The notes beneath the pieces are model-generated. The model had not been told where the DNA came from and did no database searches. It worked only from the letters and a program-made list of their open reading frames with translations. Positions 30,656 to 31,106 of a DNA stretch of 42,991 nt are shown one piece after another (the first letter of the stretch is position 1; the number at the start of each line of letters is the position of its first letter). Source of the stretch: Escherichia phage hz69. The position numbers and the translations under genes were made by a program. The stretch is taken from sequence record ON556632.1; one strand, given 5' to 3'.

Positions 30656-30684
30656 TTGCACACCCCAATATAATAGGGTACTAT
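30656..30684 (+). promoter_or_regulatory. class-2 promoter copy B: TTGCAC - 17 bp - TACTAT
   Basis: 32/32 identical to copy A (30656-30687); RBS AGGAG and ATG 30713 follow. Confidence 0.7.
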
Positions 30685-30712
30685 TCATTGCATCGAAACG
30701 AGGAGATGTGAA

Positions 30713-30880
30713 ATGAAACAAGAATATAAAAACGGTTGGTTCAAGGTTAAACCCGTATTTGAAGGCCGTAAGTATGAGATTACGGTATTTGATGGTGTTA
30801 ACTTCTATTGTGAAGACGTAAAAGTGTCTTCTTACGCCGAAGCTCGCGATTACTGCGAGGGTAAAATCAATGCGGCCTGA
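30713..30880 (+). CDS. hypothetical small protein (55 aa)
   Basis: ATG 30713 with RBS AGGAG 7 nt upstream; + strand insert inside the - strand head module. Confidence 0.45.
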   Translation: MKQEYKNGWFKVKPVFEGRKYEITVFDGVNFYCEDVKVSSYAEARDYCEGKINAA

Positions 30881-31094
30881 ACCAGCAGACACTACTAACA
30901 CAGATGCCCCTCCTGAGTGCAAGGTAAATTGTAAATATAGACAACGTTTTACCGGGTACGACTTACAGCGAAACGCGCTTAGAACAGAGACAGCCAGCAT
31001 GGTGTGCGAGTGGCGATGCGGATGGAATATAAAACCAGGGCGAATTGGTGGACACCCGCTTGATTATGAAGCTTGTATATTTAAGGCCCCGTAA
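30870..31094 (+). CDS. hypothetical Cys-containing small protein (74 aa)
   Basis: Overlaps previous gene; its 3' end runs into the terminator hairpin, so the end is uncertain. Confidence 0.3.
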   Translation: MRPEPADTTNTDAPPECKVNCKYRQRFTGYDLQRNALRTETASMVCEWRCGWNIKPGRIGGHPLDYEACIFKAP

Positions 31095-31106
31095 TGGGGC
31101 CTTTTA
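31082..31106. terminator. bidirectional terminator (GGCCCC-GTAAT-GGGGCC-TTTTAT)
   Basis: GC stem plus T-run; between the + mini-moron and the - Ig-like gene. Confidence 0.7.

Follow-up and report, generated by a model that had tools for sequence, protein, structure and literature searches.

Positions 30656-31106 of Escherichia phage hz69 (sequence record ON556632.1) very probably carry a mobile moron cassette that encodes a split two-module protein. The window, by which we mean the whole 42,991-nucleotide stretch of DNA that was analyzed, is a Kagunavirus-type siphophage of about 43 kb within the Guernseyvirinae. Two small plus-strand open reading frames (ORFs), ORF1 and ORF2, stand in the segment between a promoter-like repeat and an intrinsic terminator. 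The segment is predicted to be a self-contained accessory transcription unit (moron) in a cargo-swapping hotspot of Guernseyvirinae head modules, and its two ORFs are predicted to be the two halves of one split two-domain protein, with ORF1 representing one type of N-terminal module. The first-pass annotation of this DNA had recognized a small moron; that its ORFs are halves of one protein family with homologues in T4-like phages was not included in that reading and is new here. As a genome feature the cassette is ordinary, an accessory unit at a slot already known to vary in a phage group that has been sampled well. What makes it of interest is the cargo, a module that is absent from curated libraries, rare, found in split and fused forms and combined with swappable partners, and additional interest comes from a promoter-leader common to several phage lineages. 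We place the probability of our best explanation as a whole at roughly 0.6. The features of the cassette are as follows (aa, amino acids; nt, nucleotides).

30656..30687, plus strand: promoter-like repeat ('class 2'), with a -35 hexamer TTGCAC at 30656-30661, a 17-nt spacer and a -10 hexamer TACTAT at 30679-30684
30692..30702, plus strand: leader and probable initial transcribed sequence, ATCGAAACGAG, beginning 7 nt past the -10 hexamer (which ends at 30684)
30700..30705, plus strand: Shine-Dalgarno sequence for ORF1, GAGGAG, 7 nt ahead of the ATG, as read from the sequence
30713..30880, plus strand: ORF1, 55 aa, ATG start, invariant C33 and C48, phrog_30492
30857..30862, plus strand: Shine-Dalgarno sequence for ORF2, GAGGGT, within the end of ORF1 and 7 nt ahead of the ORF2 ATG
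30870..31094, plus strand: ORF2, 74 aa, ATG start, cysteine-rich C-terminal module
31083..31103, plus strand: intrinsic terminator called by the scan, hairpin AAGGCCCCGTAATGGGGCCTT followed by TTATCATT (to 31107)

Cargo exchange at the slot

The region 30200-31700 was compared with eight relatives by BLAST. Homology to these relatives is lost at 30687-30716 and picks up again at 31082, one base ahead of the terminator stem. From these breakpoints the exchanged segment would be the coding sequence alone, and the conserved backbone includes the promoter, the leader, the terminator and, mostly, the Shine-Dalgarno sequence. Six types of cargo were found at the slot, the present pair and five others distributed among the eight relatives.

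AV104: 104-aa ORF
LM08P2: 81-aa ORF
Golestan and fBC-Eco01: ORFs of 33 and 114 aa
fEg-Eco19 and VIPECOTPH05A: 173-aa phrog_3007 protein
Salmonella Jerseyvirus S100: 242-aa adenine methyltransferase

Every public Guernseyvirinae record examined carries cargo other than ORF1 and ORF2. This includes Escherichia phage AV104, which matches the 8-kb stretch around the cassette with 96% identity over 95% of its length; about 85 further records match the same stretch with coverage above 80%. The fEg-Eco19 record labels its own cargo at this slot 'Possible moron gene product'. A search of the cargo DNA against 50,697 phage records returned no Kagunavirus match, and its only hit was a 154-nt, 72% identical match to ORF2 in two 'Desulfovibrio phage' records. 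The present cargo was found in four metagenomic Kagunavirus-like contigs (L022, L023, L024 and L025). In L022 the cassette occupies the same slot, and in the short contigs L024 and L025 the pair stands beside the Hoc-like gene. In L023 the pair has a TTGCAC-N17-TACTAT element and a AAGGCCCC hairpin of its own, and its position is between the MuF-like gene and the portal gene. This second slot is an empty 36-nt gap in the window (32645-32680), and in fBC-Eco01 it holds a 173-aa phrog_3007 protein behind another copy of the promoter (second-slot coordinates in other sequences are L023 2803-3392 and L001 4952-5366). The base composition of the cassette (GC 44.5%, third-position GC [GC3] 0.41) departs from that of the flanking genes (52-56% and 0.51-0.68). 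The mini-moron of the first-pass annotation is thus upheld by a promoter-like element and terminator of its own, a position on the opposite strand, the homology breakpoints, the swapping of cargo in relatives and the deviant GC content.

ORF1, ORF2 and their homologues

Both of the small plus-strand genes that had been claimed are present, and the second, described as cysteine-containing, has five cysteines (ORF1 also has two). They overlap by 11 nt (ATGCGGCCTGA), and this overlap geometry recurs in all split homologues, with overlaps of 4-59 nt. ORF1 matches phrog_30492 with an E value of 5.2e-20, residues 1-53 of its 55 aligning with profile positions 1-53 of 63. Homologues of ORF1 (51-95% identity) always lie directly upstream of an ORF2 homologue, and homologues of ORF2 that are 65-76% identical occur in Krischvirus, in other phages and in a prophage. 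A tblastn search located both ORFs in 17 Krischvirus genomes, adjacent and in the same order. Among these, phage RB49 encodes ORF196c (NP_891767 / UniProt Q7Y3L0), 57% identical to ORF1, and ORF195c (NP_891766 / UniProt Q7Y3L1), 70% identical to ORF2, within a long run of small early ORFs of its hyperplastic region. The pair lies close to ligase, 30.3 and Acb2 genes in the T4-like contigs L014 and L015, adjoins a family-A DNA polymerase gene in contig L007, and, in a prophage from a Pusillimonas metagenome-assembled genome (L004/L034), belongs to a run of small genes that lies upstream of ERF and YqaJ. The homologues in temperate-type contigs likewise sit within a small-gene run upstream of ERF/YqaJ/SSB, and in one context a homologue is next to a C5 DNA methylase gene. 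Every source labels these homologues as hypothetical proteins, and literature searches on RB49 anti-defence, Kagunavirus morons and peptide motifs found nothing on them. In all 20 pairwise comparisons the synonymous proportion (pS) was 0.78-1.03, which is saturated, and the nonsynonymous proportion (pN) was 0.20-0.26 for ORF2 and 0.24-0.45 for ORF1. ORF1 and ORF2 are accordingly predicted to be real genes with both halves under purifying selection. The mRNA fold of the cassette region was unremarkable (z -1.4).

When 1.84 billion representative proteins were screened with a profile built from the ORF2 homologues, only 48 representatives were retrieved. The majority are 124-190 aa long and have the ORF2 domain as their C-terminal part, and the N-terminal parts of these longer proteins are of several unrelated types. 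Two of them, P0031 and P0015, consist of an ORF1-like N-terminus fused to an ORF2-like domain (P0031 matches phrog_30492 with an E value of 2e-5). A second N-terminal type (MKYAYITN..FGFRTR..) stands in L003 and L027-L029 as an upstream ORF of its own, overlapping the next by ATGA, and is fused to the ORF2-like domain in P0033. The boundary of fission or fusion stands just before an RPxPxDPxN...PPxC segment, and because both N-module types exist split and fused, fission or fusion at that boundary would have happened more than once. Repeated fission and fusion is classical evidence that two parts work together, and a heterodimer of ORF1 and ORF2 is the most likely arrangement of the products.

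Two of the contigs with split pairs deserve a separate remark. L003 (PV062637.1 / OR395405.1, 'Desulfovibrio phage 7757', 142.6 kb, UNVERIFIED) carries the second N-module type followed by an ORF2 homologue that has 66% protein identity, and 72% DNA identity over 154 nt, to the gene in the window. The match is surprisingly close for a phage of a sulfate reducer, and so the host attribution of this record may deserve a check. In L026 (IMG/VR UViG 2645727704_000001, a 39.5-kb viral contig) a CsrA-like ORF (MLILTRKAGETIVINDNIRV...) was identified by eye at 2188-2481, a few hundred bases upstream of the ORF1/ORF2 pair.

The ORF2 module comprises about 60 residues with the pattern C17-x3-C21 ... 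QxNALRxE ... RC50GW ... GG-x3-DY-x2-C69. In an alignment of 53 sequences C21, R38, E40, C50, G60, G61, D65, Y66 and C69 are invariant, and P15, C17 (at least 90%), Q33, N35, A36, L37, R49 and G51 are nearly so. Four conserved candidate metal ligands, the number that defines a C4 zinc domain, are found in these 53 sequences, and C17, C21, C50 and C69 probably hold a zinc ion. An AlphaFold2 (AF2) model of ORF2 built with a deeper alignment reached a predicted local distance difference test (pLDDT) score of 78.9, with strands at 24-26, 48-54 and 66-68 and a helix at 36-42. The model had no structural neighbour in PDB or BFVD and no recognized zinc-ribbon or treble-clef fold. Searches of ORF2 and the 53 family members against Pfam (including its zinc-finger families), PHROGs, NCBIfam, PADLOC and PDB sequences gave nothing above noise. 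Remote homology and structure prediction, which had been put forward as a check of the cassette, yielded homologues and a model of ORF2 and gave no library or fold match from which a function could be taken. ORF2 appears to define a rare protein module that is in no curated library searched and is new here. An internal resemblance between the two proteins was also considered: MAFFT aligned residues 1-26 of ORF1 (MKQEYKNGWFKVKP..YE..VF) with residues 44-72 of ORF2 (MVCEWRCGWNIKPG..YE..IF), the pattern in the C-terminal half of ORF2 being GW-x-[IV]KP ... Y. The profile-profile probability was 2.6%, and the resemblance was rejected as chance.

Promoter, leader and genome setting

The 32-mer TTGCACACCCCAATATAATAGGGTACTATTCA occurs exactly at 21760 (plus strand) and 30656 (plus strand), and a third copy at 42547..42519 (minus strand) retains its first 29 nt with one mismatch. 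No match to the 32-mer arose in 100 shuffled sequences. Each copy stands 25-57 nt ahead of the following gene start, and the promoter status of the element is based on the repeat, the hexamers and this position. The copy at 21760 heads a plus-strand island within the tail genes (21817..23338), and the copy at 42547 heads a run of small minus-strand genes (42493 down to 39337). The upstream promoter copy named in the first-pass annotation is consequently a real repeat with the layout TTGCAC-N17-TACTAT, and the promoter architecture that it had seen as shared by the cassette, the tail-region island and the early operon was recovered as the three 32-mer copies together with a palindrome. The tail island (21760-23338, plus strand) encodes two proteins: one of 108 aa (phrog_14165, unknown function), whose N-terminus is hydrophobic and signal-like, and one of 376 aa that resembles a DNA repair exonuclease (phrog_704).

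The palindrome, AATAG-N4-CTATT, lies at 30672-30685, inside the promoter element and overlapping the spacer and the -10 hexamer. It is present seven times in the window (at 3026, 5464, 9120, 21776, 30672, 41109 and 42518) against an expectation of 0.04. The copies at 3026, 5464 and 9120 are within TTGACA-type promoters ahead of replication genes. All seven palindromes were observed in promoter-like sites preceding early or replication genes, and their register relative to the -10 hexamer differs between the TTGACA-type and TTGCAC-type promoters. The palindrome looks like an operator for a phage or host regulator. A seven-copy motif reported from the relative fBC-Eco01, tgAATAGTa-ccTATTat-T, corresponds to AATAG-N4-CTATT and was ascribed to a phage RNA polymerase (PMC9825357). 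Among seven large replication-region ORFs scanned in the window no RNA polymerase was found; the four of at least 420 aa are a helicase-primase, an exonuclease, a DNA polymerase and a helicase. The host enzyme presumably performs early transcription, since none of the seven encodes a polymerase of this kind. ORF1 and ORF2 were also considered as the cognate regulator of the palindrome-containing promoters, and this was rejected on the ground that the gene is missing from relatives whose promoters are the same.

The position of the leader makes A30692 the likely transcription start. The first ten nucleotides of the leader, ATCGAAACGA, occur at 30692-30701 (plus strand) and at 42512-42503 (minus strand), and hence also after the promoter copy at 42547. 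The same 10-mer was found in RB49 (L002, at 3034 and 3815), in the polA-phage contig L007 (at 2854) and in the T4-like contig L014 (at 1259, 5499, 6286 and 6628). In the Kagunavirus window and in these three sequences it stands 6-7 nt past the -10 hexamer of sigma-70-like promoters. Such promoters are upstream of the ORF1 homologues in RB49 and L007, and L014 has four of them. The 10-mer appears to be an initial transcribed sequence common to early promoters of unrelated coliphages, and it could serve promoter escape or provide microhomology for cargo exchange. The A1 and A3 promoters of phage T7 start similarly.

At the other end of the cassette the terminator consists of a 9-bp stem (6 GC), a 3-nt loop and a T-rich tail. 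Its stem encodes the last three codons of ORF2 (K72, A73 and P74) plus the stop codon, and the hairpin adjoins the stop (31107) of the convergent Hoc-like gene. A bidirectional terminator had been proposed at this site. The plus-strand terminator was confirmed by the scan; on the minus strand the hairpin is followed by AAATATAC, which has no T run, and the scan made no call, so that bidirectional action was not borne out in the window.

The neighbouring genes place the cassette between the Ig-like gene and the spanin genes, as had been described, with the Hoc-like gene on one side and Rz/Rz1 on the other. The cassette is on the plus strand and every neighbouring gene is on the minus strand, including the scaffold and major capsid protein genes on the Rz/Rz1 side.

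29842..30105, minus strand: Rz1 o-spanin, embedded in Rz, phrog_5672 (E 4e-30)
29951..30337, minus strand: Rz i-spanin, phrog_2536 (E 5e-55)
31107..31568, minus strand: Hoc-like Ig decoration protein, phrog_3945 (E 4e-86), with weak Ig/Big_2/PKD Pfam matches
31568..32644, minus strand: MuF-like head morphogenesis protein
32681..34162, minus strand: portal

The intergenic stretch of about 315 nt between the cassette promoter and the Rz start was unusual in its own right. The part at 30345-30600 (minus strand) is 93-97% identical in 181 records of phages of Escherichia, Salmonella and related hosts, and is more conserved than the adjacent coding genes (87-94%). Its minus strand reads TTGACT-N17-(TGc)TAAGCT, then about 190 nt rich in hairpins, and then a strong terminator at 30381..30362 that ends about 24 nt ahead of the Rz start codon. 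The stretch is probably non-coding, because 1-base indels among relatives disrupt an annotated 38-aa ORF. By analogy it looks like a late-gene promoter-leader-terminator entry (a target of antitermination resembling lambda PR'/6S/tR') or a small RNA. A search of 30250-31200 with Rfam gave only sub-threshold chance matches, and variation among relatives in this leader is too low for covariation testing. In addition, an exact 12-mer, ATGTTGGAATAA, occurs twice on the minus strand, at 29821-29832 just upstream of the scaffold gene and at 30603-30614 just upstream of the TTGACT of the conserved leader. Two copies were reached in only 2 of 100 shuffles, and the 12-mer may be a late-promoter or regulator site.

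Proposed function, alternatives and known systems

In the explanation that we favour, host sigma-70 RNA polymerase would start at about A30692 from the TTGCAC-N17-TACTAT promoter, which belongs to the seven-member palindrome set; the rest of the set lies ahead of replication genes and small early-type genes. The product would be a bicistronic mRNA of about 415 nt, antisense to the late head and lysis genes and stopped at the hairpin 31083-31103. Expression would fall early in infection, since promoters of this family also stand at the head of the small-gene operon at 42547 (minus strand) and of the replication genes. The separate Shine-Dalgarno sequences and the 11-nt overlap make coupled translation of the two ORFs in roughly equal amounts probable. 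The products would then assemble as a heterodimer, where most other phages would make a single chain of 124-190 aa, and the complex would act early on a conserved host component or a defence system. The invariant module (ORF2) may supply the activity or the binding of a conserved partner, and the variable module (ORF1) the specificity. A host-directed accessory role is suggested by the dispensability of the pair in relatives, its movement between unrelated phage lineages, the DNA methylase among the slot cargo, and the literature on enterobacteriophages, whose variable accessory regions show an enrichment of counter-defence genes (Silas et al., bioRxiv 10.1101/2023.04.06.535777). The homologues are also found consistently among small early genes. 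Host takeover or counter-defence in particular is a tentative assignment that we hold at somewhat worse than even odds. Similarity to a characterized anti-defence protein was absent from PHROGs annotation, PDB sequences, PDB folds and BFVD, these being general collections rather than a dedicated anti-defence library. A broader proposal, which we offer as speculation, is that of a modular early-protein family in which a nearly invariant cysteine-rich effector or docking unit for a highly conserved bacterial target is retargeted by swappable N-modules, either covalently or as a coupled subunit, and spreads as promoter- and terminator-bounded cassettes. In that same speculative proposal the lineages concerned would be T4-like myoviruses, Kagunavirus siphoviruses and temperate beta-proteobacterial phages, sharing the initial transcribed sequence.

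Several points weigh against this explanation. A generic sigma-70 scan did not call the promoter at 30656. The heterodimer is drawn from gene fusion and fission, and one of the fusions, P0015, comes from a single 1-kb contig where a 1-nt assembly error is possible; the P0031 and P0033 fusions are independent of it. The cysteine spacing C-x3-C ... C ... C contains no classical knuckle pair, the two CxxC/CxxH knuckles being absent, and no match by homology or fold supplies a function. Arms-race proteins normally evolve fast, and the identity of about 70% between ORF2 proteins of gamma- and beta-proteobacterial phages is unusual for a protein of this kind. Because ORF2 is so unusually conserved, a conserved housekeeping target or a nucleic-acid ligand is equally plausible.

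In one alternative the product would not be a counter-defence factor but a small zinc-finger protein that binds nucleic acid and regulates transcription or translation of the phage or the host. Phages are known to have small zinc proteins as regulators, Ogr/Delta, Com and TraR among them. ORF2 combines three invariant and one near-invariant cysteine with a polar helix face of invariant or near-invariant residues (Q33, N35, R38 and E40), carries a net positive charge and is very highly conserved from host to host; in temperate-type contigs its gene also stands beside helix-turn-helix or ribbon-helix-helix regulators. However, ORF2 has no sequence or fold likeness to those proteins or to any DNA- or RNA-binding family, and the closest relatives, with the same promoters and genome plan, lack the gene, so that ORF2 cannot be a core regulator of the programme of this phage. 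We consider a regulator of this type unlikely. A type II toxin-antitoxin (TA)-like pair, with ORF1 as the labile antitoxin and ORF2 as the toxin in exclusion or addiction, would account for two small overlapping genes under a palindrome-containing promoter, for the stronger conservation of the downstream gene in distant contexts (65-76%, against 51-56% for the upstream gene), and for the presence of the pair on mobile elements including a prophage. It is quite improbable nonetheless, and was rejected. The majority of the family are single-chain fusions whose N-part is interchangeable among unrelated modules, no toxin, antitoxin or defence model in Pfam, NCBIfam or PADLOC was matched, and the palindrome belongs to the phage backbone, being at the slot regardless of cargo. 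Moreover, no copy was found in a DNA search of 5,426 complete E. coli genomes or in a protein search of 72,556 plasmids.

The fused homologues raise the question of whether ORF1 and ORF2 are a single gene, read through a programmed +1 frameshift in the 11-nt overlap or broken by a frameshift and decaying. In all five of the ORF1-type split loci that were examined, the frame of ORF2 is +1 to that of ORF1, and P0015 differs from the split form by an apparent single-base change. Yet ORF2 has its own Shine-Dalgarno sequence and ATG, and of the four other split ORF1-type loci compared, three have an ATG at this position too (RB49 ORF195c uses an upstream ATG, giving 84 aa, and has ATA at the position of the window's ATG). 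The split is kept in at least five divergent backgrounds (the window, L002, L004, L007 and L014), each half being under purifying selection. Where the second N-module type is split, the overlap is 4 nt (ATGA) and the frame relation is another one, which points to termination-reinitiation coupling, and ATCAATGCGGCCTGA contains no evident slippery motif. The single-gene alternative is very improbable on these grounds, and programmed frameshifting was rejected. There remains the view that the two frames are open by chance, the region being non-coding or the real gene being an antisense 136-aa ORF (30590..31000, minus strand). Both ORFs are indeed short, and the ORF on the opposite strand is longer. 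Against this, both ORFs have protein homologues at 51-76% identity whose DNA is too diverged for blastn (except for the 154-nt ORF2 match), and the antisense ORF crosses the conserved promoter and is itself unconserved, being truncated to 71 aa in L022 and replaced by a different 107-aa form in L023. The antisense ORF was rejected, and chance frames, to which we give almost no credence, are refuted by the homologues and the pN and pS values. The preferred explanation remains an early cassette for a split two-module protein. The ORF1/ORF2 pair is a reasonable candidate in screens of Kagunavirus and Krischvirus accessory genes for host takeover or counter-defence, and the fixed expression socket, with its conserved promoter, leader and terminator, is a natural payload site for engineering therapeutic Kagunaviruses.

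Comparison with described systems sets the cassette apart from some and beside others. No known toxin or antitoxin homology was found and separate polypeptides are not the rule in the family; by the tests run, the cassette proteins would fall outside any TA, defence or described zinc-finger family. A moron, in the sense of Hendrix and Juhala, is an autonomous unit of promoter, gene and terminator that has been inserted where relatives have two adjoining genes. The cassette resembles one in having its own promoter-like element and terminator, an orientation opposite to the late operon, replacement in relatives and a deviant GC content. It differs in that the slot is empty in none of the eight relatives examined and that the promoter, leader and terminator are backbone, only the coding cargo being swapped. 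Replacement of cargo in a fixed expression socket, rather than simple insertion, is the process that these comparisons predict. The logic of lysogenic conversion is inapplicable, since the phage belongs to a group annotated as virulent. The accessory regions of Silas et al. offer a similar hotspot between conserved core genes with many unrelated small genes, including a DNA methyltransferase. In contrast to typical arms-race genes, ORF2 is far more conserved, and counter-defence by the cassette is an inference.

The RB49 pair ORF196c/ORF195c has the same order and overlapping arrangement as ORF1/ORF2, with the difference that ORF195c (84 aa) starts further upstream than the 74-aa ORF2. The RB49 hyperplastic region is also described in the papers on the promoter-early stem-loop (PeSL) cassettes of T4-type hyperplastic regions (Arbiol et al. 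2010, PMC2839356; Comeau et al. 2014, PMC4122927). As in PeSL cassettes, small ORFans that vary from one close relative to the next are enclosed by a repeated sigma-70-like promoter and a hairpin; the cargo has homologues in an ORF pair inside the RB49 hyperplastic region, and the ATCGAAACGA leader is common to the promoters of RB49, L007 and L014. Unlike PeSL cassettes, the present one is in a siphovirus head module rather than a T4-type hyperplastic region, and its promoter is joined only to a 5-bp AT-rich palindrome, the G/C-rich hairpin being about 400 nt away at the 3' end. It is therefore not filed as a PeSL, for which a stable, usually G/C-rich stem-loop joined to the promoter is one of the defining features. 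A mechanistic kinship between the cassette and the PeSL units, through the leader and cargo that it shares with RB49, is nevertheless plausible.

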